DNA of 64,000 nucleotides from Escherichia phage NHEP1, in the sequence record PQ511146.1; one strand, 5' to 3'. The first letter of the stretch is position 1, and each line of letters opens with the position of its first letter. A program made the position numbers and the translations under genes. Under the pieces are notes generated by a model. It saw only the letters and a program-made list of their open reading frames with translations, made no database searches and was not told the origin of the DNA. Of this stretch, positions 19,816 through 36,173 are shown piece after piece.

Positions 19816-20157
19816 CTACTCAAGGTCTTCAGAGTCAAGCTCAAAAAGAATCAAACTGTGCATGCCTGCAGAGAGATCAACACACCCTGCAACAATAAGG
19901 GTTTGATAGTAAGGTTCAGCACCCTCAATATCTTCGTTAAAATCCACAACAAGGTAGTCACCTTTGTTAAAGGTGTATTTGTCCGATGTAAACGCAAAAC
20001 CTGCCCAGTCCCCTACTGCAGGATCTTTATCAGTCACCTTTGTTAGCAGTAGATCTTTTTCACGAGATCTTTTAGTAAAATCGTGAATCACAACATCCTT
20101 CTCTTCAGGAGTCGGATTGCCACACACGTAGTTAACGATATTTCTCCACAAACTCAT
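19816..20157 (-). CDS. hypothetical protein (113 aa)
   Basis: ATGA overlap with helicase gene. Confidence 0.55.
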   Translation of the reverse strand: MSLWRNIVNYVCGNPTPEEKDVVIHDFTKRSREKDLLLTKVTDKDPAVGDWAGFAFTSDKYTFNKGDYLVVDFNEDIEGAEPYYQTLIVAGCVDLSAGMHSLILFELDSEDLE

Positions 20158-21524
20158 ACGTCCCCCTTTTCTGCTCTAGTTTCAAAATCTTTCCTGACTT
20201 TCTCGTCTAAGCCAGGGAAAGTTGTATTATAAAACTCTACGACTCTCGGGTCAACAATAATATCCACCTCTCTTAATGGACGCAACAAGTTTATTCCTTG
20301 TATCGTCTTAACCCGACTCAAGGCAACATACGTCATTCCGGGAGAGAAAGCTCCGTTCTTTCCGAGGTCTAGGTTGTAACAATCTAACGTAAGTCCTTGA
20401 CTTTTATGCGATGTTACTGCGTACCCAGATTTCAAAGGAAGTTGCTCATAAGACCCGATCACAACCCTCTCTATGAACTTCTCCATCTTCCTTTCGGCAA
20501 TATTGTACCTCTGGGAAGGTTTGTACTCGTTATTCTCCCACAATCTCGGCTCAATTTCAACCTGTGTCCCGTCTTCCAGCTCAACCACCACAGACTTGGT
20601 CTTGAATTTTACCACTGTGGCGCGTGTCCCGTTGACATAGTACGGAACTTTATGTGTCGGGTCAACATCGTTTGAGGTTATCATAACCTTCATCCCTATC
20701 TTCAGCCTCATTTCCTGCTCCACAGGCAGTGTGGAGGGGAACTTACCTTTCATTTTACCAATGTAGGTCTTCTCTGGGGCCTTGATGGCATCATAGAAAC
20801 GTCTGTTCACCTCCTCTGCTTGCTTATTGGTGGCACAGATGGTCAAGGCATCTGTTGGGACACCACCATGATAGCAACGAGTGTTAAGCTCTGCTACAAC
20901 CTCTTTTATGCGACGACCTTCACGAACACAGTTCAACATTGTGGCGAAGCGAACAGATTCCTGACGGAACTGGTCTACTAATGCTATATTGTGAAGATTA
21001 AGATCCTCCCAAGATTTTGTATAGCAACACAGGTCTGTGTGGTAGAAGTTGAAGTAGGCTTCTTTCTCCATAGAAGAGACAACTGGGGGTGCTTGGTAGA
21101 AATCTCCAAACAATAGCACCTGAATGCCTCCGAAAGGTTTGTCATTTTTCCGAAGAAAGCGGAGTTTTCTATCCATCTCTATGAACTTGTCAGCACGGAT
21201 CATAGAGATTTCATCGATAATTAGGATGGTAAATGCCTTGCTTTTCAGAGGCTTTGCTGTTTTTGCCCTTATTGCTGTCCAGTCTGACTCCATGCTCACA
21301 CCTGCGGCAAGATCGAAAGTTCGGTGCGCTGTTGCTCCATTAACGTTTAAAGCGGCTACCCCTGTCGGGGCAACCGTTATGCAAGAGTCTCCATACATGG
21401 ACTGGATCATGTTGATAAGATATGTCTTCCCGGTTCCACCGGGTCCACTTACGAAGACATTCTCACCACTCATGATTGCAACAAGGGCAGCATCTGTGCC
21501 TACATCGTACTGCCCTTTTTCCAT
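20154..21524 (-). CDS. SF1B DNA helicase (Dda/RecD/Pif1-like)
   Basis: Walker A GPGGTGKT, Walker B IIDEISM, C-terminal TSHKSQGLTLD and YVALSRVK motifs. Confidence 0.85.
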   Translation of the reverse strand: MEKGQYDVGTDAALVAIMSGENVFVSGPGGTGKTYLINMIQSMYGDSCITVAPTGVAALNVNGATAHRTFDLAAGVSMESDWTAIRAKTAKPLKSKAFTILIIDEISMIRADKFIEMDRKLRFLRKNDKPFGGIQVLLFGDFYQAPPVVSSMEKEAYFNFYHTDLCCYTKSWEDLNLHNIALVDQFRQESVRFATMLNCVREGRRIKEVVAELNTRCYHGGVPTDALTICATNKQAEEVNRRFYDAIKAPEKTYIGKMKGKFPSTLPVEQEMRLKIGMKVMITSNDVDPTHKVPYYVNGTRATVVKFKTKSVVVELEDGTQVEIEPRLWENNEYKPSQRYNIAERKMEKFIERVVIGSYEQLPLKSGYAVTSHKSQGLTLDCYNLDLGKNGAFSPGMTYVALSRVKTIQGINLLRPLREVDIIVDPRVVEFYNTTFPGLDEKVRKDFETRAEKGDV

Positions 21525-22729
21525 TACGCCTCCTCGTAGATAATGTCGATAGTATTACCGTCGCGGTCAACCACGTACTCAATTGGGTCGCCATCTTTGC
21601 GTGATTCTGGAGCTACTACGATTTCGTAGCGGCATGCACGGCACTTGGCGCTGTTGTGTTGGTAAGGTACACTAACTACATCAGCAGGGTCAACCATGAC
21701 CGTCATCACAGTTCCGTAGCTCTTTGCATACTCTTTGCTGGCACAGTGCAGGCCATAAGAGCATGCAGCTTCCGGATCATCCTCTACAAAGTTACGGGGC
21801 ATGGATACAAAAGCTCCCTGGTATTGTGGGACTTTACCACTGTGCCAATCCACCCACTTGTCGCCGTTAAACTGAACCCCTTTGTAGCAAATGATTCGAC
21901 CATCTTCTGCAATCTGAATGTCGTTTGCCTGCATAAAATCGTAGAGCATGTTTACAGATTTTGCAGAAGGATTGCGTAGCAGGCGAACGAGGAATTTCAC
22001 ATAGCGGTCATCCAGTGTTCCGTCTGCATAATCTTTCTCAATTTTCTTTGCAATGGTGGATCGCATCTCTACACCGTAGTAGTAGAGCTTACCATCTTTC
22101 ATGATCAGGTTGTCTGCAAGTGTGGTGAACTCATTCTTGCGTTCCAGCCAGACAAGGATTTCACCAATTGCCTCGTCATATTCCTGAACAGAGATATGGT
22201 CGAAGACTTTCTGGTAAACTTCCTCACTTTCACTGCGGCGAATTTCAAAAATACCTTCGTTGCAGGTGATCTGGAGGAGTTCCCCGCAAATAACCACCAA
22301 AGGCTCGATGCTTCGGGTCTGTTGCTGAGACACACTGCTCACCACCTCCAGCACCGGGTCTTTTACTTCTACTAAAGGTTCTTCTGACTTGATTGCTACC
22401 CCAGTGAACCCTACACCGTGAACAACACACAGTGGATATACCACACCCCAACGTTTAACGGAACCTTCTCCTGAATCTAAGATCATGGCGTACTTACCGT
22501 TATCTTCCAGCCCATATCGAAATAAACGGGCCTCTTCACGGGTTTCAAAATCCTCACGGGTGTAGCAGACGCTGTCACGGTCAGGATCGAACAACTCTGG
22601 GGCACCTACTGCCAGTGTCCAGGTTGTGTTACCTTTCTCAATAGCGCATGTGAAACCCTTCTTCTCAAGCTCTGCACGGCGGTCACGTGCTTCTTTACGA
22701 GTTTTGAAATGTTCGTAGATGAAAATCAT
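21524..22729 (-). CDS. rIIB-like partner protein (putative) with tandem N-terminal repeats
   Basis: immediately follows the GHKL ATPase; ATG 5 nt after AGGAGA (track TTG at 22765); two about 45-aa repeats at N-terminus; assignment by synteny only. Confidence 0.4.
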   Translation of the reverse strand: MIFIYEHFKTRKEARDRRAELEKKGFTCAIEKGNTTWTLAVGAPELFDPDRDSVCYTREDFETREEARLFRYGLEDNGKYAMILDSGEGSVKRWGVVYPLCVVHGVGFTGVAIKSEEPLVEVKDPVLEVVSSVSQQQTRSIEPLVVICGELLQITCNEGIFEIRRSESEEVYQKVFDHISVQEYDEAIGEILVWLERKNEFTTLADNLIMKDGKLYYYGVEMRSTIAKKIEKDYADGTLDDRYVKFLVRLLRNPSAKSVNMLYDFMQANDIQIAEDGRIICYKGVQFNGDKWVDWHSGKVPQYQGAFVSMPRNFVEDDPEAACSYGLHCASKEYAKSYGTVMTVMVDPADVVSVPYQHNSAKCRACRYEIVVAPESRKDGDPIEYVVDRDGNTIDIIYEEA

Positions 22730-22739
22730 CTTGGTCTCC

Positions 22740-24722
22740 TTATTTGATGTTATTCTTTGTATCAATCAGTTCACGGTATTCAATCATAGCAGGAGTGTCC
22801 CAATATTTCAAGCCTACATGCTTCAAAAGTGGATATTTCTTTTCCAATCTTGCAATATAGGCCTTCCCGCACTTAACCCGGTTGGCGATTAAGATTTTGG
22901 CACGATGATTTAGCTCACCGTACTTCCACGTGGTGCTACCTTCCCACTTGTGGAAATGTGGCCGATAACTTCCAAAATCCTGCATGGGGATAATTTTACC
23001 TAACTGTCTGTACAGGCTGTCATATGAAGTTTCATTTGCTGCGCGAGTTAGTAAGAATTTCCAAGCATCCTCTTTCAACAAATGTTCCACATTCTTCTCT
23101 GTAACATATTGGCAATCAGGATCAGTCCAAAGCAGACGAGATTCCGACACCAGGTACAGATCTTCCCCTTCAGGAATCTGGAGTGCCGCACGCACACGGT
23201 CATAATCTTGCTGGTAGATGTTGCTCATCTGCCCTAGCCAACAACTTCCGCGTTGGATATCCCCCTCATACGGTATGCAGTGCTTAATCTTCCTGAACTC
23301 TGCCTTAGTAATACGCTCACGCCGGAAGTAACCATCCTTCTCAAGTTTTTTAACCCAATAGCCTGGTTCGTAACGGGTTTTGGTTTCACCTTTCTTCGTA
23401 GGTCGGCGTGGAAGCTCCGATAACAATTTGACCGTATCTGCAAAAAACGGATGGTGTGCCGCCTCTTTAAACTCTTTCACCAGATCCGTGTTACGGCAAT
23501 AGAAAACGTTGCGTCCGGTAATCTCGCTTAAGTAGTTACACTTATTCCGGTTATATTTGCCGTCTCCGTCGTTAAATACTAAATAAACTCCCCGTAAGAA
23601 TTCTACCTTTCCGTAGCAGGCGTAACCTATGCGGCCTTTATTTAAGCCGCCAGCGAAGATCTCGCAGTCCCCCAAATTTCCTAGCCCTGTTTCTTCCCAG
23701 CGGTCATACATAAAATTCTTACCGAAGATGTGCCCGAACACTCCACTGTTCTTCATCATCTCGCGTGCTTCTGAGGATGTTTTTGCTGTCTCCAGTTCTG
23801 CAACAACTTCTGCTCCACGAAGGCGAATGCCTTCTTTGACAAAAGCTTCCAAACGCTCTTGGAATCCACCATCGTCGTGACCTTCTATGGTCCATTCACG
23901 CCCTGGGTTAATATTGCAATCTCCGATAGGGATCTCTACACAAATTGCAGGATAATCTATTAGTGTCTCCAGGAACTTAGAACGGTAAGGTTGGTGACCC
24001 ATTACCACACGACTCTCGTCAGAGCTGGTATAACCCTTCAGGATGGTCATCTTCCAACCATCTTTTTCATAATAATACTGCGCCTCTACTTTGTCTCCCT
24101 CCAGCATCTTGCTCGTCATCGGGTCGGTGACAGTGAACGGAAATTTTGCATAGCGCAGGCATGATGCAATAGCGGTGCGATATTTCAGAACATGCTCTTT
24201 CTTAACATGAAACTGAACTTTTACCCCGTTGTGCTCTTCAGTCTTCCGCTCACGGATCTTGGTGACATTTGGGATACCCTGGTCCAAGAACAATAGGTAT
24301 GTGCTTTCCACACCGTTGTGCACACTGATTACATCGAAAGTGTCCACCATACTGAACGGGGCCTTTGAACCAACACCTTTATTGCCTACCAGAGCGTTGC
24401 TGTTGCGCTTGGTTGACTCTCCGAGGTTCATGAAGGTGTTGCGGACCATCTCTTCTGACATGCCTAATCCAACGTCCTGCACAAAGAAGTATGGTTCAAG
24501 GTCTGTAGGAGAGTGAATGATGATCGGAACATCACCCCGTCCAGACTCAACATGGGAGTCCACAGCATTGAAGATCGGTTCACGGCAGCTTGCCAGCACC
24601 TTATCTTCATAAATCCCTTTGATGATTAGCCCAAAAGTCTCTTTGTTCAGAGAAATTGATCCCCTGGTTACCTCCATATTCCCAGTTAGCACCGCTTTAG
24701 TTTCACTGCTGTTTACAATCAT
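22740..24722 (-). CDS. GHKL-family ATPase, rIIA-like
   Basis: Bergerat-fold motifs: N-box EPIFNAVDS, G1 VQDVGLGM, G2 NKGVGSKAP; 660 aa. Confidence 0.6.
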   Translation of the reverse strand: MIVNSSETKAVLTGNMEVTRGSISLNKETFGLIIKGIYEDKVLASCREPIFNAVDSHVESGRGDVPIIIHSPTDLEPYFFVQDVGLGMSEEMVRNTFMNLGESTKRNSNALVGNKGVGSKAPFSMVDTFDVISVHNGVESTYLLFLDQGIPNVTKIRERKTEEHNGVKVQFHVKKEHVLKYRTAIASCLRYAKFPFTVTDPMTSKMLEGDKVEAQYYYEKDGWKMTILKGYTSSDESRVVMGHQPYRSKFLETLIDYPAICVEIPIGDCNINPGREWTIEGHDDGGFQERLEAFVKEGIRLRGAEVVAELETAKTSSEAREMMKNSGVFGHIFGKNFMYDRWEETGLGNLGDCEIFAGGLNKGRIGYACYGKVEFLRGVYLVFNDGDGKYNRNKCNYLSEITGRNVFYCRNTDLVKEFKEAAHHPFFADTVKLLSELPRRPTKKGETKTRYEPGYWVKKLEKDGYFRRERITKAEFRKIKHCIPYEGDIQRGSCWLGQMSNIYQQDYDRVRAALQIPEGEDLYLVSESRLLWTDPDCQYVTEKNVEHLLKEDAWKFLLTRAANETSYDSLYRQLGKIIPMQDFGSYRPHFHKWEGSTTWKYGELNHRAKILIANRVKCGKAYIARLEKKYPLLKHVGLKYWDTPAMIEYRELIDTKNNIK

Positions 24723-25219
24723 TTATTGCGCTCCTTGTAGTAGATATGACTCCCGAATTGAGCTGTCCTCTGCATCTTTTTTGCCCATTTCGGTCGTACT
24801 TTTGTTGTATGGTAGTGTGTTGCTCCGCCTGTTATATCCATAGCCATGTATGCAACATGGTTGTTATTATAGACCTTTAGAAGCATCTTTGCAAGACTTT
24901 TAGCGTGATCCCATGAATCTTTTTCTGTCACCTTAAAAGTTTTGCCGTGGTTTGTCCACGAAAACTGGTTAGGTTGGTAGACAATCTTTCTTATAGTGTC
25001 TGGGTATTTGGGGTGAGATTTCCTGTTTAGTGTGGCAAACCCAGATGCCAGCATACCCATCGTGCCATCCCCTCTAGCCTCCCTGTAGATATTGCATGCC
25101 AGAATGTTTTCCTTAGTATCCGACGGCTTGCAGGTGTGATATACTTTTTGTTTTGGTGCTGCAACAACAGGCAGCGATAAAAATGCGCTCAAAATAATAG
25201 CAAAGATCTTAGTTTTCAC
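24719..25219 (-). CDS. secreted cell-wall hydrolase (SleB/CwlJ-like, Hydrolase_2 family)
   Basis: signal peptide MKTKIFAIILSAFLSLPVVAAP; NIYREARGDG...ATLNR...IVYQPNQFSW motif; GTG start after GGAG. Confidence 0.65.
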   Translation of the reverse strand: MKTKIFAIILSAFLSLPVVAAPKQKVYHTCKPSDTKENILACNIYREARGDGTMGMLASGFATLNRKSHPKYPDTIRKIVYQPNQFSWTNHGKTFKVTEKDSWDHAKSLAKMLLKVYNNNHVAYMAMDITGGATHYHTTKVRPKWAKKMQRTAQFGSHIYYKERNK

Positions 25220-25230
25220 AATAGCTCCAA

Positions 25231-25256
25231 ATAGAAAATCCCCGCCGAAGCGGGGT
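25231..25256 (-). terminator. rho-independent terminator (CCCCGC-UUCG-GCGGGG + U-run)
   Basis: 6-bp GC stem with UUCG loop followed by AUUUUCUAUUU on minus strand. Confidence 0.55.
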
Positions 25257-27792: not shown

Positions 27793-28148
27793 TATTCTAC
27801 CCCCTCTTCTTTTTCTTCAGCATTAGTTTCAGTGCTACCCCACTCTGGAGTTTCCACCTCGATAGTAAACTCACGCACTACACGGTAATTGCCCATGAAG
27901 CGCTCCACTTCTTCAAGGCTTATGGAGAGGCCATTGGCAACCAAGTCTGCAGCACCCTTCTCTACCAGGTAGTCCAGATTGGCTTCCAAGGCTTCAGGCT
28001 CAAACCCTGTCAATGCAATCATATAACCTTCCCCTTCATCAGGGAGGGCAATACAGCCCAACTGATTTTCTTTAAAAAAGCAGTGACCATCATTATTGAT
28101 TGGGTGCTCATTGCAGTAAATAGCTGCACGATAAGTAACTTTAGACAT
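27792..28148 (-). CDS. hypothetical protein (118 aa)
   Basis: operon context. Confidence 0.55.
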   Translation of the reverse strand: MSKVTYRAAIYCNEHPINNDGHCFFKENQLGCIALPDEGEGYMIALTGFEPEALEANLDYLVEKGAADLVANGLSISLEEVERFMGNYRVVREFTIEVETPEWGSTETNAEEKEEGVE

Positions 28149-28160
28149 TGATAGGCCTCC

Positions 28161-28439
28161 TTAGGCAACTGTCATTTTACATTCTTTGAATTTTAGCACA
28201 AGACGGTGATTGTGTCTAGTGTCTAAAAAGATTTTTTCAACCATCAGGCACACGGTGTAACCGTCCATCTTATTGACAACAAAATCTCCAGGGTAAGGGA
28301 GAATGTCACCTGGACTGGGGAAACATAGCCCACTCAAGAAGGCATCGTCGGTGGTGGATTTAATGGATTTCCACACACTGTCTGCCTGAATATTTTCACC
28401 CACATAATATACACTACCACATGCCTTCATCATAGTCAA
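28161..28439 (-). CDS. hypothetical protein (92 aa)
   Basis: ATGA overlap with upstream gene. Confidence 0.55.
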   Translation of the reverse strand: MTMMKACGSVYYVGENIQADSVWKSIKSTTDDAFLSGLCFPSPGDILPYPGDFVVNKMDGYTVCLMVEKIFLDTRHNHRLVLKFKECKMTVA

Positions 28440-29335
28440 ATCTCCGCGTAAATTAAACTGGAATCAGTATACTTCTTTAGTGGGTAAATATCCTGTCCAT
28501 AGATGCCGTCATTAAACACCTCATCTACCCAAAGGCTACACTTATATCCCATCATCTCTAAAACACCCATCTCTTCTTCGGTAAACTTATCACCGCTCTT
28601 GCAAGATGTCAATACCTCATTCTGTACTCTTGCCACCTCGAAGCGGTTATTGGCAATATCGCTATTAGCGATCAAATACTCACCCAAAGGGTGTGCGGCA
28701 TTAAAGATGCACAGTGGACGGTTGACGTAATAGTCTCCAGGTGTATAAAAATTATTGAGGTCTTTCACTAGAACATTCTTATCAGTCACTTCATTCATAA
28801 CATCATGCATATCGCACATCTTTATATGTTTGAGGATTCCATCCCCCATCACAAAATAAAAACTTGCTGAAACACTTTCGGCATAGATCTTACTAGATCC
28901 GTTGTAGTTGTATTTTACTCGGATGCTAACGGGGGTTTTTCCTGTCGCGTTAGCCATCATCCAAAGAAATGGCAGCTCATACTTCTCCTCTGAGGAAACA
29001 AAAGGTGAAGTTGCCAGAGATCGGAAACCTCCAGAGAAGTTGAAAGTTACAGAACCGCTCCGGCGGTATGATACTGCGTATTCCACTTTTATATCAACAT
29101 ATCCGTTGGAGTAAGTATGCCCTCCATTATCAAGGTATGTCCACTTATCGGACCCAGATACCAACCTCCGCTCAATTACCTTCATCACTACAGGGATTAG
29201 CGGATTAGTACAAACCGATTTTGAAGTAGCTTTATCATCCAAAGCCTCGTAAATTGCAGAAAGGATATCACCTGCTGAGAGATTGGTTGTGATATCTTGT
29301 TTCCACCTGGTGCTAAAACTGTTAAGATTTGCCAT
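28436..29335 (-). CDS. hypothetical protein (299 aa), first gene of the long minus-strand operon
   Basis: ATG with AGGAGC SD directly downstream of promoter 29376..29404. Confidence 0.65.
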   Translation of the reverse strand: MANLNSFSTRWKQDITTNLSAGDILSAIYEALDDKATSKSVCTNPLIPVVMKVIERRLVSGSDKWTYLDNGGHTYSNGYVDIKVEYAVSYRRSGSVTFNFSGGFRSLATSPFVSSEEKYELPFLWMMANATGKTPVSIRVKYNYNGSSKIYAESVSASFYFVMGDGILKHIKMCDMHDVMNEVTDKNVLVKDLNNFYTPGDYYVNRPLCIFNAAHPLGEYLIANSDIANNRFEVARVQNEVLTSCKSGDKFTEEEMGVLEMMGYKCSLWVDEVFNDGIYGQDIYPLKKYTDSSLIYAEI

Positions 29336-29375
29336 GAGTAAGTGCTCCTATGTTAGTTTTCTTTTGAATGGGTGC

Positions 29376-29404
29376 ACTATATCGTGGATTTAGAGTAAAG
29401 TCAA
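29376..29404 (-). promoter_or_regulatory. sigma70-like promoter (TTGACT-17-TATAGT), divergent partner
   Basis: hexamers seen in the intergenic strand-switch region. Confidence 0.55.
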
Positions 29405-29417
29405 CACGTTTTTCAGG

Positions 29418-29446
29418 TTGACATCTTCTCAGGCACTTGGTAAGAT
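29418..29446 (+). promoter_or_regulatory. sigma70-like promoter (TTGACA-17-TAAGAT), divergent partner
   Basis: the track TTG 'start' at 29418 is the -35 hexamer; real ATG is at 29478. Confidence 0.55.
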
Positions 29447-29477
29447 TTCTCCACCCACAGAGAACAAGAGACAACTC

Positions 29478-30467
29478 ATGAATCTTGAAAAATATTATAC
29501 ACCAGAAGAGTTAGAGCGCTTGCTCAAAAAATACAGACGCAAACAGAATAACGCACGGAAACGGGATATAGAGTTCAACCTGTCATGGGAAGAATATCTC
29601 CTATTTGGTAAAAAACTTTTAGGAGAGGGAGTATGCGACTATACCCTTATACCTTTCGACATGCACACAGATGAAAACGGACTGGGAAATCCTTTCTACC
29701 CATCTCTGGAGCGGATAGATGATGAAGGTCCTTATGCGGTTGACAATTGTTGTGTGGTGGGATTGAGATGCAACTCCCTAAAGGACTGCCTGGTAGATAA
29801 AAAGACCGCAGTCTTGATTAAAGACAAAACTGATCGAAAAATTGTCCAGCAGATGATGCTCCACCTGAGCGAAGAGCGTATGGAGAAATTGAAAGGTGAT
29901 TACACTTTTGAAGATTTCATCTTGCAATATGGAACGGAAGAGGATAAACTAGCACTCTTTGACGAAGAATGGGAGGAAGATATGTCACCGATGCAGGATT
30001 TTAAAAACTTCATGGCTAATCGTGGAGCCAACAAGCACATTTCTGACATTGTAAACGAGCCTGTAGTAGAGGAGATTGGAGAGATGACGCAACAGGCTTA
30101 CGAAGAGGAAAAAGAGCCTCAAGTGGTCGAAGAAGAGCTTACAGAAGAGGTTCCTGCACTGCCTGACGATGTTGAGATTGCCAAAGCTTACACTTTCTAT
30201 TGCCAGACGTTCTACGATGCAGGTATGAAAGTTGATCTGTCATTCAGCCAGTTTAAGAGCACATACATTCGAAAATGTTGTGCTTTAACTGGTGAACGTC
30301 TCGGTGCCGGACTTAAACCCCTATTAGTTACCGACTGGAACAAAGGTTTCACCAAAGGTAACTTCATGGTAGTATCTCCAATCATGGAGAAGGCTATGAC
30401 AGACCTTATGAAGACCACTCGCATGACAATGACCGAGTTGGCTGGTATTTTCAAGCACGTTAAATAA
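29478..30467 (+). CDS. hypothetical protein, possible HNH-like nuclease (330 aa)
   Basis: ATG 8 nt after AAGAG; F.LSWEEY...C.YT and SLERIDDEG...DNCCVVGLRCNSLK resemble HNH_3 / endonuclease VII-type motifs, with R in place of the catalytic H. Confidence 0.55.
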   Translation: MNLEKYYTPEELERLLKKYRRKQNNARKRDIEFNLSWEEYLLFGKKLLGEGVCDYTLIPFDMHTDENGLGNPFYPSLERIDDEGPYAVDNCCVVGLRCNSLKDCLVDKKTAVLIKDKTDRKIVQQMMLHLSEERMEKLKGDYTFEDFILQYGTEEDKLALFDEEWEEDMSPMQDFKNFMANRGANKHISDIVNEPVVEEIGEMTQQAYEEEKEPQVVEEELTEEVPALPDDVEIAKAYTFYCQTFYDAGMKVDLSFSQFKSTYIRKCCALTGERLGAGLKPLLVTDWNKGFTKGNFMVVSPIMEKAMTDLMKTTRMTMTELAGIFKHVK

Positions 30468-30471
30468 TGAC

Positions 30472-30488
30472 AGGGGCCATTGGCCCCT
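30472..30488 (+). promoter_or_regulatory. intergenic hairpin GGGGCC-ATT-GGCCCC (possible attenuator)
   Basis: near-copy of the bidirectional terminator stem at 36187 but without a clean U-run. Confidence 0.3.
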
Positions 30489-30500
30489 TCTGGAGTTTTA

Positions 30501-31961
30501 ATGGATAGCAGAAGTTCAGAAATCATTACCGCACAAAAAGATGATGCCTTGCGAATGCTGCAGGCCGCTCGCATGTACCTTCTTGAAAAGCTGCCGTTTT
30601 ATGGCACACTGTTGTCAGGGTTGCAGTTCGTAGAAAACCACACATGGTGCTCCACTATGGCAACAGACCATAAACGCATCTACTACAGCCCTGAGTTCAT
30701 TATGGGGTTGGCAGATGAGCGTAAAACCATTCTTAAAGCATCTCTGACTGACAAGCAGTTTGAGATGGCTGAAGTTTTCTATTCCCCAAAATCTGTGAAA
30801 GAGGTGGCCTTTCTTCTGTCACATGAGGTGGGGCATATTATCTGTGATCATCTGGTCCGTGGTAAAAGCTTTGAGCCGGAACTGTTCAATATTGCTTGTG
30901 ATCACGTTATCAACACAGGTCTTGTGGTTGACTTTAGCAAGCCTCCTTGTGTTTTCTTCCCGAAGGGGAAAAGCACTGAGTTCGTAAAAGGTAAGCCTTT
31001 TGGCTTCTTAGCTAATTGCTACTGCGACATGAAGTTTCATGGATGGATTGCGGAGAACGTCTATGCAGTTCTTGATAAACAAAGAGATCAGAATGGCGGT
31101 AAAAGTAAGAACGGTAAAGGTGAGAACTCCCAAGGAGATAAACGACAAACCGATGATCACATGAGCGGGAACGGTGGCACTAGTGATGATCTTGGAAAGG
31201 CTATGGGGTATGATCAGCCGCAACCAGTAATCAGTCAATCGGATAAAGATCAGGCCATGCAGGACTCTGGTGACATGTTGGAAGCAGCAATGCAAGCTTC
31301 AGGAGGTCGTTGCCCCGAGGCGGTGCGCGAGTTTGTCAAAAACAGAGGCAAGCCTGTAATCAATTATATAGATATTATTAAGCAACGTATGTTATCTAAA
31401 AGAAAGGCTGAGTTAACCTACAGAAAACCTGGTCGCCGATCTGGGTCTTTGACCACCACAATGCGAAAAGTTGGAGCTATAAACAAGAATCAACACGTTA
31501 TTGTTCCTGGTCGTAATCCGGAAAACACTATAGATATTGTAGTGGCTTTAGACGTTTCTGGGTCGATCTCACAAAGAACTTTAAAGAAAATGTTCAATGA
31601 GATCACCGGGTTGTGCAATTTGTATAAAGAGTTTAAGGTTACGATGTTCTGTTGGTCAACCGAGGTTGGAGAGGTTAAAGTATACACTCGCGGTAACATC
31701 GATGAGATGATCAACTATGAGGTCCACTCAACATGGGGCACAACAGCCGCCTGCGTGTTCGAGTATCTTGATGCTAACATACCGAATGCAAAAGATGTCA
31801 TCGTCCTTACCGACCTCTACTTTGAGCATAACTTTGAACAAAAGGCTGTTGACAACAAGTGGAAAAAGTACGATACTTTATGGGTTCTCACCGAAGGGTA
31901 TAATAAAAATTATATCCCGAGCTTTGGGAAAACTGTGGAATTAATCGAGTACGCTAAGTAA
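30501..31961 (+). CDS. DUF2201-type putative metallopeptidase + VWA domain protein
   Basis: N-terminal TMATDHKRIYYSPEF, HEVGHIICDH (HExxH) and NIACDHVIN; C-terminal VWA with MIDAS-like DVSGS; ATG after GGAG (track TTG at 30480). Confidence 0.8.
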   Translation: MDSRSSEIITAQKDDALRMLQAARMYLLEKLPFYGTLLSGLQFVENHTWCSTMATDHKRIYYSPEFIMGLADERKTILKASLTDKQFEMAEVFYSPKSVKEVAFLLSHEVGHIICDHLVRGKSFEPELFNIACDHVINTGLVVDFSKPPCVFFPKGKSTEFVKGKPFGFLANCYCDMKFHGWIAENVYAVLDKQRDQNGGKSKNGKGENSQGDKRQTDDHMSGNGGTSDDLGKAMGYDQPQPVISQSDKDQAMQDSGDMLEAAMQASGGRCPEAVREFVKNRGKPVINYIDIIKQRMLSKRKAELTYRKPGRRSGSLTTTMRKVGAINKNQHVIVPGRNPENTIDIVVALDVSGSISQRTLKKMFNEITGLCNLYKEFKVTMFCWSTEVGEVKVYTRGNIDEMINYEVHSTWGTTAACVFEYLDANIPNAKDVIVLTDLYFEHNFEQKAVDNKWKKYDTLWVLTEGYNKNYIPSFGKTVELIEYAK

Positions 31962-31976
31962 GAGAGGATGGTATTT

Positions 31977-32234
31977 ATGGCAACAGAGGTAGTAATTAAA
32001 GCTGAACGCCCAGTTAAAAAAGCTATCAACACGTTCCCTGTAGGAACCATTGTGAGCATGATTACAGAGTCAGGCCGTGTATCTACACTGCTAATCGTGA
32101 AATCTGCATGCTCATCTTGTGTGTGGGCATACGATCTTGACGAGAAAGAACTGAAAGATTTTGTCGGGGAGCTGAAAGCAACAGAGCTTGACGCTCGTAT
32201 CGAAGTATTTGGTGAAACTATGAAGGAAGAGTAA
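31977..32234 (+). CDS. hypothetical protein (85 aa)
   Basis: second ATG, 9 nt after GAGAGG; first ATG at 31968 abuts the SD. Confidence 0.5.
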   Translation: MATEVVIKAERPVKKAINTFPVGTIVSMITESGRVSTLLIVKSACSSCVWAYDLDEKELKDFVGELKATELDARIEVFGETMKEE

Positions 32235-32497
32235 TGACTACAAAAATCACTATTGCAGAACCGAAAGCTAACACGCAACCTATCGAAAAGTTTAAATGCG
32301 GCGAGGTGGTAACATTTACACCAGATAATGAAGATGCTAAGATTTTTGCCATGGTAACAGCCGAGTGGATGTGTGACAATACCACACAGGTGCTGCGTTT
32401 TGACACCTATCTTACAGATGAAATCAGGAACGACAAGATCGTGACTGGTGTGGATACTGAGATCATTTTCTACAAGAGCTTTTTAGAGGGTTTCTGA
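32234..32497 (+). CDS. hypothetical protein (87 aa)
   Basis: TAATG overlap with upstream gene. Confidence 0.55.
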   Translation: MTTKITIAEPKANTQPIEKFKCGEVVTFTPDNEDAKIFAMVTAEWMCDNTTQVLRFDTYLTDEIRNDKIVTGVDTEIIFYKSFLEGF

Positions 32498-32498
32498 T

Positions 32499-32732
32499 AT
32501 GGCAAAAATTCGTAAATTATCCAGCAATCAGGTTGTGAAAGACTTTGAATCTGGAGAGATTCTGTATGTTCGTGATGCAGATGATGAAGGTGAAGATCTT
32601 GTTATGCTGGTAGGGCACGCTGAAGACGGATGCATCCAGGCTGTTTTTCTTGAAACAGCTGTGGTACACTGGATAGAGCTGGACCTGAAAGCACGAAAAC
32701 CTAAAGCAGAAATCATTATTTACGAAGATTGA
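32499..32732 (+). CDS. hypothetical protein (77 aa)
   Basis: ATG 8 nt after GAGGG. Confidence 0.55.
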   Translation: MAKIRKLSSNQVVKDFESGEILYVRDADDEGEDLVMLVGHAEDGCIQAVFLETAVVHWIELDLKARKPKAEIIIYED

Positions 32733-32748
32733 CAAAAAGGAGAGAGCC

Positions 32749-33198
32749 GTGTTGAGCAAACGTGAATGCGACAGCATTAGTCTGAATTCCTATAAGAAAC
32801 AATGGTTTGGGGTAGAAGTTTGCCGACTGCGGCTAGGCTCCTACTTGAACTTCGTCTATTATGAGAGTGACAGCCGTATCGTCTCTTATGAAGTGTTCTA
32901 CACTAAGAATACATTCGAGCTGAGACGTAAGGTGGATGGCGGGAGATCTACCGCCCAGAATAATTGGGAAACTATTCTACCTCCAGATGTTATAGGAAGC
33001 CCCCTGAATGTATCTGAAGATGAAAATCTTATGGTTCATGCTATGATGGGACTTGACAGCTTAGAGCTGGCGATCTATGATATGTCTATCGAAGCAGTTA
33101 AGCTGGACTACATCGAAAACACTTTAGAGGAAGGTATCAAGAAGTTTCTCGGTGAGAAATTGAAAGCCCACTTTCATAAGGAGCTATATCTGTTATGA
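32749..33198 (+). CDS. hypothetical protein (149 aa)
   Basis: GTG after AAAGGAGAGAG. Confidence 0.55.
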   Translation: MLSKRECDSISLNSYKKQWFGVEVCRLRLGSYLNFVYYESDSRIVSYEVFYTKNTFELRRKVDGGRSTAQNNWETILPPDVIGSPLNVSEDENLMVHAMMGLDSLELAIYDMSIEAVKLDYIENTLEEGIKKFLGEKLKAHFHKELYLL

Positions 33199-33440
33199 AG
33201 ACCCGTAAAGAACGTAACAAGATTTTACCTGGCGCTCTCGAACACATGATGAAGTGCAGATCTATCTGGCACTCTGCCAAGGAGGGGCAGCATGTGGTCG
33301 TGGTTAGTGATAATGCCAACCCATTCGGTGATTATGTCACCATGATGACTCCATACATCCGCGACGGTGTTGTGGAAGTGGTTCCTTATAACGGTCTGCA
33401 TGAGAGGCATTTTGAGAGCACTTTGCTAGTGGAGCTATAA
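33195..33440 (+). CDS. hypothetical protein (81 aa)
   Basis: ATGA overlap with upstream gene. Confidence 0.5.
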   Translation: MKTRKERNKILPGALEHMMKCRSIWHSAKEGQHVVVVSDNANPFGDYVTMMTPYIRDGVVEVVPYNGLHERHFESTLLVEL

Positions 33441-33442
33441 TC

Positions 33443-34009
33443 ATGGCGGTCAATGTGGCTTACAACACAGGAAAGCTTGACAGAGACATTGGGTGTCTTG
33501 TCCTTTCAGATACAGAGGAGTATTGGGGTTATGGGTTGCTGTCAGACCCACACCCGAGCAACCTTGTATCAACAGTGCTATATCGCTACGACCCTGTACC
33601 AACGGTACACGACAAAGACATTCACGACCTTCGGATCAAGTGTCTGGAAGATCTTCTGAACAATGGCTGCAACGATCTGCGGGTAGCCAAGGAGAAGCTT
33701 ACAAACATTCACAAAGAGGAAGTGATGAGCACCCTCAGTAAGAGATCAGTGCACAAAAAGATGATGCTGAACTTTGCAATGGGTATCTACATGGATGGGT
33801 ATAAGGGAGGGGATCCGATCCTCAAGCTTCGCTGCCCAACACTGTGGGAAAGAGTGGTTGACAGTAAGGACGGTACTGCCCTGCTAGAACTCCACACTGC
33901 AGGTTGGATTTGGCGGTATGTAGACGGATACCCTCTGTGGGCATGTGGGCCCGGTGAGTTTGTTGACAGACCTAGCGCGGTAGTGGATTTGCTATTGCAG
34001 TTTGAATAA
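33443..34009 (+). CDS. hypothetical protein (188 aa)
   Basis: ATG 8 nt after GGAG. Confidence 0.55.
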   Translation: MAVNVAYNTGKLDRDIGCLVLSDTEEYWGYGLLSDPHPSNLVSTVLYRYDPVPTVHDKDIHDLRIKCLEDLLNNGCNDLRVAKEKLTNIHKEEVMSTLSKRSVHKKMMLNFAMGIYMDGYKGGDPILKLRCPTLWERVVDSKDGTALLELHTAGWIWRYVDGYPLWACGPGEFVDRPSAVVDLLLQFE

Positions 34010-34065
34010 AAGGTGAGTTATAAAGCATTCATACACCTATCAACAATACAACAAGAGAGACTGAG

Positions 34066-34341
34066 ATGACGAAAGAAGAAGCTGACGTATTAGACTTTGC
34101 ACTAGAGGCTACGCAAGAGGCTCTAGTGTTAGCTTGGAAAATGAACCAACGTGCTGCAGAATGCAACCGCCGAATCAATGAGATCCTGGGTATGTCTATG
34201 TATGATTTCACCATGCATGCTGGAGAGATTCCTGAATTAACTGCTGAGATGAATGATCTTGACAATAAAATTAATATCATTCTGAAGACAGCAGAAACAA
34301 CTCACCAAACCGCCCGTAAATTTATCAACGAGAAGGTGTGA
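34066..34341 (+). CDS. hypothetical protein (91 aa)
   Basis: ATG after AAGAGAGA. Confidence 0.5.
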   Translation: MTKEEADVLDFALEATQEALVLAWKMNQRAAECNRRINEILGMSMYDFTMHAGEIPELTAEMNDLDNKINIILKTAETTHQTARKFINEKV

Positions 34342-34343
34342 AT

Positions 34344-34817
34344 ATGGACTACAGCTACTGCGGAGAAGAAGTACCTTTTAACTACAGCAATCTCGCCACG
34401 AGTAATCCATATGAGACTCGTCACGGCACACACATCATTGCTATTGACTTTGATGGAACGTTTAATGCGAGCCCTTTCATCTTCTCCCGCCTTATTAAGG
34501 ACCTGAAGAAGGAAGGGTGGACAGTCTATCTTGTGACTTTCCGATTCATCACTCAAGACAACGTGGACATCGAATACTGGCGCAAGGAGTTAGATGTTGG
34601 AGTGTTTTATACTGGAGGCGTTCAGAAGGCCGCTTATCTGGCGCAGTTTGATATCTACCCAGACATCTGGGTTGATGATTCTCCAGCTTGCATTCCGGCT
34701 AAGAATCAGTTAGAGTTTGCAATGAAGGAGATTGAGTATAAGTCTGACGCTAAGCGTAACGGATGGCCCTTTATTATTGAAGATTACCCAGATCCTGAAC
34801 CGGAGAAAGAACCATGA
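34344..34817 (+). CDS. HAD-superfamily phosphatase (putative nucleotidase)
   Basis: motif I IAIDFDGT, motif II LVTFR, motif IV IWVDDSP; ATG 7 nt after GAGAAGG. Confidence 0.55.
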   Translation: MDYSYCGEEVPFNYSNLATSNPYETRHGTHIIAIDFDGTFNASPFIFSRLIKDLKKEGWTVYLVTFRFITQDNVDIEYWRKELDVGVFYTGGVQKAAYLAQFDIYPDIWVDDSPACIPAKNQLEFAMKEIEYKSDAKRNGWPFIIEDYPDPEPEKEP

Positions 34818-34984
34818 AACGAAGATACCATTACGTGATGTGGAAGTTATATCATGGTGCTGCTAAGGCTTATCGAGCCGTGTTTGGTAATGACAATCAC
34901 TGCATTATGTTACACCTTACATCCATTGAGCATCACAATGAGTGGATTCGTGCAATCGTAATAGGTGACAAAGACTTTAAGTAA
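34814..34984 (+). CDS. small hypothetical protein (56 aa, not in ORF track)
   Basis: ATGA overlap with upstream stop suggests translational coupling; below the track length cutoff. Confidence 0.35.
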   Translation: MKRRYHYVMWKLYHGAAKAYRAVFGNDNHCIMLHLTSIEHHNEWIRAIVIGDKDFK

Positions 34985-35014
34985 AGTATGGCTTTCGAGA
35001 TGGAGACTGACTAA

Positions 35015-35398
35015 ATGTGCAAGTGTAAATCTTATAATTGGAAAGTGAAAGGTGCCAAGCATCCAAATGTTATCGTTGATGTGCCTAAAAAGCTCCGTGA
35101 CGGCAAAAAACGTGTGTGCCTTGATAAGTGCATGGCTAAACCTATCATGAGCCTATGGGCGGCAGGATTGAAGACCTTAAACTGCTGCTGTGGTCATAAC
35201 AAACGCCCACCAAGCATTATCATACCGGAGAATGCAGATCCTAAAGCATATGCCAAGATACTGACCCGCTACTACAGCACCTTCTTGATTGGAAAATGGT
35301 GCCACGATGAACTCCAGTGGTGGATAGCGTATGGCGGTCTTGGTGCTGCTTTAGGTTTCCCAGCTTTATCAGATAAATCTGTCAAGGTATCGTCGTAA
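35015..35398 (+). CDS. Cys-rich hypothetical protein (127 aa)
   Basis: ATG 8 nt after GGAGA; CxCx...CLDKC...CCCGH. Confidence 0.5.
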   Translation: MCKCKSYNWKVKGAKHPNVIVDVPKKLRDGKKRVCLDKCMAKPIMSLWAAGLKTLNCCCGHNKRPPSIIIPENADPKAYAKILTRYYSTFLIGKWCHDELQWWIAYGGLGAALGFPALSDKSVKVSS

Positions 35399-35502
35399 CC
35401 TATTTTAAGGCCTCAAACGAGGCCTATGCCTTCATAAACTACCTGCCTCTGTGTGATTACCCTTCTAAATAAAATACCCTCTCAAATTGCTTAAAATTAA
35501 GC

Positions 35503-35531
35503 TTGACATCAACACCAGATTTATATATGAT
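35503..35531 (+). promoter_or_regulatory. sigma70-like promoter (TTGACA-17-TATGAT)
   Basis: intergenic; consensus -35, 5/6 -10; the track TTG start at 35487 lies upstream of it. Confidence 0.55.
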
Positions 35532-35561
35532 TATCTCATCAACCAAGCAGAGGAGATTGTC

Positions 35562-35969
35562 ATGGATAATCTTGCGAGTGTGAACGTCGAAATTGTTAAA
35601 CTAAAGTTCTTGGGCTTTCGAGACCCTAATTCTCTAACAGCTATACTGATGGATACCCACTTCACACCTGGGAAAGAGTACACTGCCTTCCGTTATATTT
35701 GTGGAGATCACGAATCGGCCTATAGTGTGAATACAAACCTCGGCGAGGGATATTTCATCAAAGATATCACAGATCACTTGTGGGGTATGTGGGAATTGGT
35801 GGAAGAAGAGAATAAATCCCTTCCCAAAGAGATTTGGGTGCACACCTTCCACACAGGTAAGTTCGGAGGTACGGAACATAAGTCTATCCACTATGAAGAA
35901 GAAAGTGCCATCAAACAACAAGCTGTGCTTGGTGGATCTGTAGAAAAATTTGTTAAATGCGAGGACTGA
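35562..35969 (+). CDS. hypothetical protein (135 aa)
   Basis: ATG 5 nt after AGGAGA. Confidence 0.55.
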   Translation: MDNLASVNVEIVKLKFLGFRDPNSLTAILMDTHFTPGKEYTAFRYICGDHESAYSVNTNLGEGYFIKDITDHLWGMWELVEEENKSLPKEIWVHTFHTGKFGGTEHKSIHYEEESAIKQQAVLGGSVEKFVKCED

Positions 35970-35972
35970 GAA

Positions 35973-36173
35973 ATGGCTGATTTTTGTAAAGATTGCTCTG
36001 AAGAGTTGTTTGGCTTTGACTGCAAAGATTTGGAAGGTCTGATCACTGAGGATCAGTGGAAGGAAGGCTATGCAGCACCTGTTATTTGTGAAGGTTGTGG
36101 CTATACCTATGTTGACCATAAAGGTAAGCGCGTCAAGCCGTCTGAAGATGGGGCATGTTGGGAGTATTACTAA
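35973..36173 (+). CDS. zinc-ribbon protein (66 aa)
   Basis: ATG 7 nt after GAGGA; CKDC...CEGC. Confidence 0.5.
   Translation: MADFCKDCSEELFGFDCKDLEGLITEDQWKEGYAAPVICEGCGYTYVDHKGKRVKPSEDGACWEYY

Follow-up and report, generated by a model that had tools for sequence, protein, structure and literature searches.

The question raised by this locus is whether two adjacent genes of Escherichia phage NHEP1, encoding proteins of 660 and 401 amino acids (aa), are an ordinary rIIA/rIIB pair or a module of a different kind. The genes lie in a 64,000-nucleotide (nt) stretch of DNA (sequence record PQ511146.1), the whole of which is referred to here as the window. An earlier interpretation made from the letters and open reading frames (the sequence-only reading) had noted an rIIA/rIIB-like arrangement and suspected that the second protein, which opens with tandem repeats, might belong to a distinct module. 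Our analysis indicates that the two genes are very probably the canonical rII module with which a Vequintavirus counters host defences, consisting of the GHKL-type ATPase rIIA and its partner rIIB with accessory N-terminal repeats, and directed against membrane-depolarising abortive-infection systems such as RexAB.

The profile searches that had been proposed for both proteins place rIIA in phrog_612 and the core of rIIB in phrog_609. The match of rIIA to phrog_612 ('RIIA lysis inhibitor') is full length, with aa 1-658 covering positions 1-724 of 725 (E 4.5e-123), and T4 rIIA covers this profile from end to end as well (E 9e-250). In a pairwise BLASTP comparison, aa 1-190 align with T4 rIIA at 28% identity (E 2e-21). 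The N, G1 and G2 boxes of a Bergerat fold, which the sequence-only reading had described, are indeed present as motifs I to III (Table 1), and Pfam HATPase_c_3 is matched at aa 50-147 with 34.9 bits (cut-off 25). These motifs align residue by residue with RELITNMIDAH, RDFGPGMS and GGFGLGSKSPF of T4 rIIA, and all three also align to the ATPase domain of TRAP1/Hsp90 in a weak match (E 0.011), so the concern that they might not line up with catalytic residues was not borne out. NCBIfam and PADLOC gave nothing for rIIA beyond sub-threshold GHKL-type matches. Judged from these comparisons, the 660-aa protein is an rIIA and a predicted member of the GHKL-type ATPase family.

The second protein matches phrog_609 ('RIIB lysis inhibitor') with aa 132-373 against positions 806-1043 (E 1.7e-61), and BLASTP aligns its residues 172-371 with residues 107-304 of T4 rIIB at 36% identity (E 1e-37). 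The invariant residues of this core include C323, H328 and C366 in the family alignments, and in the full-protein structure predicted with AlphaFold2 on a 34-sequence alignment its predicted local distance difference test (pLDDT) values are mostly 80-95. The core was found by tblastn in 2,877 phage records; no relative of the confidently modelled core could be detected in the PDB, and NCBIfam and PADLOC returned no matches for rIIB. The 401-aa protein, which had been said not to match canonical rIIB obviously, thus carries a canonical rIIB core, and its first ~130-140 residues alone fall outside the canonical family. The idea that the pair would be ordinary if both proteins aligned end to end with their T4 counterparts therefore holds in part, namely for the full length of rIIA and for the core of rIIB, and not for the N-terminal ~130 aa, which lie outside the profile. 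The arrangement itself is as had been described, with both genes adjacent on the same strand and separated by 10 nt (rIIA stop at 22740, rIIB ATG at 22729), a gap in which the Shine-Dalgarno sequence of rIIB is found.

The phrog_609 profile is itself unusual in its composition. It has 1055 positions, the first ~310 of which match the GHKL N-termini of rIIA and the last ~300 of which match rIIB, and this composition makes rIIA proteins match an 'RIIB' family. The profile seems to derive from rIIA and rIIB sequences that were fused or merged.

The N-terminus of rIIB consists of two homologous units of ~45 aa each, as the sequence-only reading had noticed. Self-alignment yields a score of 44, whereas shuffled sequences give 20.9 +/- 3.9 and none of 2000 shuffles reached 44, and hhalign comparison of the family alignments of the two repeats gives a probability of 93.5% (E 2.2e-7). 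When run against the window, the hidden Markov model of each repeat picks up the other one and has no further match. In the AlphaFold2 model, repeat 1 is predicted to form a strand at 2-8, a helix at 11-23 and strands at 27-32 and 37-43 (bounds approximate), and repeat 2 a strand at 54-61, a helix at 64-78 and strands at 82-85 and 94-102; a model of the N-terminus alone shows the same secondary structure (pLDDT 78, predicted template modelling score 0.47). The linker that follows (aa ~100-141) has pLDDT values of ~27-28, below 30, and its length and sequence vary among relatives.

BLAST with the Vequintavirus rIIB N-terminus returned 117 records, all from Vequintavirus, and diverged copies of both units were found in rIIB of Mydovirus, Seunavirus and Henunavirus and in a metagenomic 405-aa clade. 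Since the units are common to several genera of the Vequintavirinae, the duplication would be older than the subfamily. Other searches returned little else: from 1.84 billion representatives, phmmer with rIIB aa 1-110 recovered close rIIB relatives and one spurious repeat protein (P0006, FISUMP-like), tblastn with the N-terminus against 50,697 phage records found rIIB relatives only, and word-indexed searches with rIIB aa 1-170 and with a 9-sequence profile yielded nothing beyond fragments of this protein. Weak sequence matches to influenza M1 and YiiS were treated as chance. The metagenomic clade (P0011-P0076) comprises rIIB proteins of 405-424 aa that are 46-49% identical to the window rIIB, carry both repeats and lie on contigs of up to ~145 kb; these contigs probably represent unclassified Vequintavirinae-like phages.

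The repeats are absent from T4 rIIB, in agreement with the sequence-only reading, and the T4 N-terminus holds a helix-turn-helix (HTH) instead, with matches to HTH_7 (23.7 bits), HTH_28, HTH_29 and Sigma70_r4. On phrog_609, T4 rIIB spans positions 751-1049 with the HTH filling 751-805, and the match of the window rIIB begins at position 806. Pfam searches gave HTH matches in rIIB of T4, Kuttervirus and Felixounavirus, and none in the window rIIB. No domain could be detected in the long N-terminal region of the N4-like rIIB that was examined (EC1-UPM). The N-terminal HTH varies within the rIIB family, and the lack of an HTH does not bar the window rIIB from membership. As a modest side observation, rIIB N-termini appear, from these sequence comparisons, to be interchangeable modules on a conserved core.

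Functional data are available for close relatives. In Adler et al. (PMC11879866), knock-down of RIIA or RIIB by CRISPRi-ART in T4, MM02, EdH4, SUSP1 and N4 reduced the efficiency of plating on E. coli expressing lambda RexAB, and the same knock-downs were without effect on Rex-free E. coli; transposon insertions in T4 rIIA and rIIB were also depleted on RexAB hosts (10.1101/2025.11.20.689424). EdH4 (MK327930, Vequintavirus murica) encodes a rIIB identical to that of the window at 388 of 401 residues (97%) and a rIIA that is 96.7% identical. The rII phenotype is therefore documented for the lineage of the window phage through EdH4, and by analogy the NHEP1 pair may be expected to allow growth on hosts with membrane-depolarising abortive-infection systems such as lambda RexAB. 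Besides, the PhageMaP preprint (PMC11482910) reports that the rII pair of Bas63 counters QatABCD; Bas63 is a Felixounavirus, and this result is therefore only family-level context for the window pair. The same preprint gives the Bas63 rII proteins '>80% sequence homology' with T4 RIIA/B, a figure that we doubt in view of the Felixounavirus rIIB described below. T6 rIIB alone has been reported to set off a CARD/gasdermin defence and to be toxic.

Based on these observations, we propose that ATP would be bound and hydrolysed at the intact Bergerat site of rIIA, driving a conformational or dimerisation cycle, and that rIIA together with the rIIB core (aa 142-373) might act at the inner membrane, on its cytoplasmic side, where they would block or neutralise channel activation. 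The ~100 N-terminal aa of rIIB would be a lineage-specific accessory domain that arose long ago when a beta-alpha-beta-beta unit was duplicated within the protein and that stands in place of the T4 HTH, and the disordered linker would join it to the core. The repeats may tether or target the core to a partner, and they are most likely not the bearers of the anti-Rex activity, because rII pairs with unrelated rIIB N-termini (T4, N4, SUSP1 and EdH4) all counter RexAB. Several points weigh against this explanation. The molecular mechanism of rII is called unclear in both PMC11879866 and PMC10312443, which makes the mechanistic steps given above our inference, and the RexAB result was obtained by knock-down in EdH4, a near-identical phage, and not in NHEP1. 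No transmembrane segment was predicted in rIIA or rIIB, and the sole hydrophobic stretch, rIIB aa 95-113 (Kyte-Doolittle value 1.69), is not conserved in relatives; without a conserved transmembrane segment, any membrane association would be peripheral.

Other explanations bear on the N-terminal repeats or on the pair as a whole. Some public records label rIIB a 'SPOR domain-containing protein', and a genuine SPOR domain would bind peptidoglycan (denuded glycan strands) and could link rIIB to the product of the adjacent SleB/CwlJ-like hydrolase gene, for instance in envelope anchoring or in the timing of lysis. The isolated rIIB N-terminus does score 23.5 bits at aa 8-42 against a Pfam gathering score of 21, and a secreted cell-wall hydrolase is a neighbour in conserved synteny. 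However, the score drops to 19.3 bits, under the gathering score, in full-length rIIB, the match spans only model positions 12-49 of 76 and falls on unit 1, and three of nine rIIB family members match, whereas the genuine E. coli SPOR proteins FtsN, DamX, DedD and RlpA score 47-65 bits across positions 1-76. Comparison of the family profile with these four proteins by hhalign gave probabilities of 0.5-6.7%, from a thin 4-sequence profile, and a family-profile search of PDB sequences returned no SPOR entry at E <= 10. Moreover, the rIIB chain opens directly with beta-strand 1, and as neither a signal peptide nor a conserved membrane anchor is present to bring it to the periplasm, a role at peptidoglycan is topologically implausible. 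We consider a genuine SPOR domain highly improbable: the N-terminal module appears SPOR-like at most, the adjacency of the hydrolase is not persuasive, and caution is warranted against the spread of the automatic SPOR name in databases.

On the other hand, the repeats might substitute for the T4-type HTH as a ribonucleoprotein (RNP)-like alpha/beta module that binds nucleic acid and tethers rIIB to DNA or RNA. They sit where T4, Kuttervirus and Felixounavirus rIIB have the HTH, and the arginine pairs R11/R15 and R64/R68, together with R93 and the tryptophans W37 and W94, are invariant across genera. Yet the module carries a net charge of ~-2 to 0 in both Vequintavirus and the 405-aa clade, with +4 to +6 reached only in the Mydovirus type, none of the nucleic-acid-binding families was matched significantly in the phmmer, PDB-sequence profile and Pfam searches, and in the literature searched we found no demonstration that the T4 rIIB HTH binds DNA. 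Binding of nucleic acid by the repeats is therefore unlikely in our view, though better placed than peptidoglycan binding. Hardly any credence is left for a distinct two-gene module that resembles rIIA/rIIB in layout alone. The 130 N-terminal aa of the second protein that fall outside every rIIB profile, and the confinement of the BLASTP match with T4 rIIA to aa 1-190, could be taken to favour it, but it is refuted by the strong matches to the T4-family profiles phrog_612 (full length, for rIIA) and phrog_609 (rIIB core) and by the pairwise alignment with T4 rIIB, and the orthologues in EdH4 show the Rex-dependent phenotype that defines rII.

The canonical rII pair thus stays the preferred explanation, and within it we tentatively raise a further possibility, namely that rIIB is modular, with a conserved core, a flexible linker and swappable N-termini (HTH in T4, Kuttervirus and Felixounavirus, repeats in Vequintavirinae), and that the N-terminal module might set tethering and defence specificity. 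If so, this module could decide which defences are neutralised (RexAB, QatABCD) or whether the protein is recognised by the CARD/gasdermin defence that T6 rIIB sets off. The discovery value of the pair is little, as it has long been annotated and work on a near-identical phage has already shown that it counters Rex. Nevertheless, one rIIB core with unrelated N-termini across lineages, in pairs that all counter RexAB where tested, offers a simple way into the rII mechanism, which has long resisted solution.

Two further sequences concern rIIB. The rIIB of a Felixounavirus (REP12) shows only 36% identity to the window core, and its N-terminus is of its own kind, with an HTH match that is weak and below threshold. 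In a 498-aa protein from an ENA metagenome contig (P0010), a TPR-repeat protein is joined to a stretch that matches about half of the window rIIB with 100% identity; a chimera of assembly or gene calling is more probable here than a real fusion.

Table 1. Positions of the rII genes, their predicted domains and motifs, and neighbouring features in the 64,000-nt window of Escherichia phage NHEP1.
Feature	Position	Strand	Residues	Remarks
rIIA gene	22740..24722	minus	660 aa	
GHKL (Bergerat-fold) ATPase domain of rIIA	24153..24641	minus	aa ~28-190	
rIIA motif I, E48xxxN52xxD55	24558-24581	minus	aa 48-55	read from sequence
rIIA motif II, D83xGxG87	24462-24476	minus	aa 83-87	read from sequence
rIIA motif III, G113xxGxG118	24369-24386	minus	aa 113-118	read from sequence
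rIIB gene	21524..22729	minus	401 aa	from ATG
rIIB repeat 1	22601..22726	minus	aa 2-43	beta-alpha-beta-beta; invariant F8, R11, A14, R15, W37
rIIB repeat 2	22424..22570	minus	aa 54-102	beta-alpha-beta-beta; invariant F61, R64, A67, R68, D85, R93, W94, V96
rIIB variable linker	22307..22423	minus	aa 103-141	predicted disordered
Conserved rIIB core	21611..22306	minus	aa 142-373	homologous to T4 rIIB aa ~76-306
Shine-Dalgarno AAGGAG of rIIB	22736..22741	minus		overlaps rIIA stop codon; 6 nt before ATG
SleB/CwlJ-like cell-wall hydrolase	24719..25219	minus		N-terminal signal peptide; from open reading frame, sequence and annotation of relatives
RecD/Pif1-like helicase	20154..21524	minus		start overlaps rIIB stop (TAATG)
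Terminator-like hairpin followed by T-run	25240..25255	minus		immediately upstream of the hydrolase-rIIA-rIIB-helicase string

The open reading frame listing offers an alternative reading of rIIB from a TTG start (21524..22765, 413 aa). Because AAGGAG-N6 precedes the ATG at 22729 and public records share this start, we consider it almost certainly the true one and the 413-aa reading improbable. Upstream, the stop codon of the hydrolase gene and the start of rIIA overlap in ATGA, by which the hydrolase is translationally coupled to rIIA. Given the stop/start overlaps, the Shine-Dalgarno sequence on the rIIA stop codon and the hairpin upstream, the hydrolase, rIIA, rIIB and helicase genes look like a single tightly coupled gene string. 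The same gene order is kept in EdH4 and in Mydovirus AV124, and in EdH4 a terminator is annotated at the position equivalent to that of the hairpin. Elsewhere in the window, GC skew and AT skew are both positive at 28000-36000 and negative outside it, which fits a plus-strand gene block; the record of Escherichia phage S127 BCL3 carries annotations of anti-sigma/VWA-like genes.

The 3.2-kb region has at least 90% identity to 119 phage records in a megablast search, nearly all labelled Escherichia phage, and the closest of them is S127 BCL3 (99.8% identity). Those relatives that are classified, rV5, Murica and EdH4 among them, belong to Vequintavirus, and by nucleotide similarity the window phage is assigned to the same genus as an rV5-like E. 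coli myophage. The pair is mostly named rIIA/rIIB ('protector' or 'lysis inhibitor') in rV5 and more than 100 relatives, and occasional records label rIIA 'ATP-binding protein' and rIIB 'SPOR domain-containing protein'. The rIIA/rIIB pair itself is already known, having been annotated since the deposition of the rV5 genome. Sixteen 'Campylobacter phage' records (MG065655, MG065646, MG065644 and others), with Campylobacter jejuni given as host, carry the rII locus at ~93-98% identity; these host labels look doubtful, as would be the case for contaminating coliphages, for example.

Among known systems, the SPOR domain (PF05036; FtsN, DamX, DedD, RlpA, CwlC) resembles the rIIB N-terminus in being an internally duplicated small alpha/beta unit, and the marginal Pfam match of repeat 1 is in register with SPOR alpha1-beta2-beta3. 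Unlike SPOR proteins, however, the window protein scores 3-fold lower, covers half of the model and has no export signal, and the conserved Arg/Trp signature of its repeats is not the SPOR signature. T4 rIIA (NP_049616) is closer: it shares with the window protein the N-terminal GHKL layout RE..N..D, D.G.GMS and G..G.GSK.PF, membership of PHROG 612, a gene placed immediately upstream of rIIB and, as seen in the EdH4 orthologue, the Rex-dependent phenotype. It differs in length, with 725 aa against 660 in the window, and beyond aa 1-190 the two are related at the profile level only. T4 rIIB (312 aa) has in common with the window rIIB a core of ~230 aa with the motifs MPR..V.DD....CS.GLH and VS.P, the gene order and, again through the EdH4 orthologue, the Rex-dependent phenotype. 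In contrast, T4 rIIB has its HTH at aa ~7-50, where the window rIIB has the two repeats (aa 2-102) and a 40-aa disordered linker, and the window protein carries an extra C-terminal tail of ~28 aa. The nearest counterparts are those of rV5 (DQ832317), Murica and EdH4, with 93-99.8% DNA identity, proteins of 660 and 401 aa, the same four-gene order and the annotation 'rIIA protector / rIIB protector'; they are set apart by only a few substitutions, in the case of EdH4 rIIB 13 of the 401 residues.

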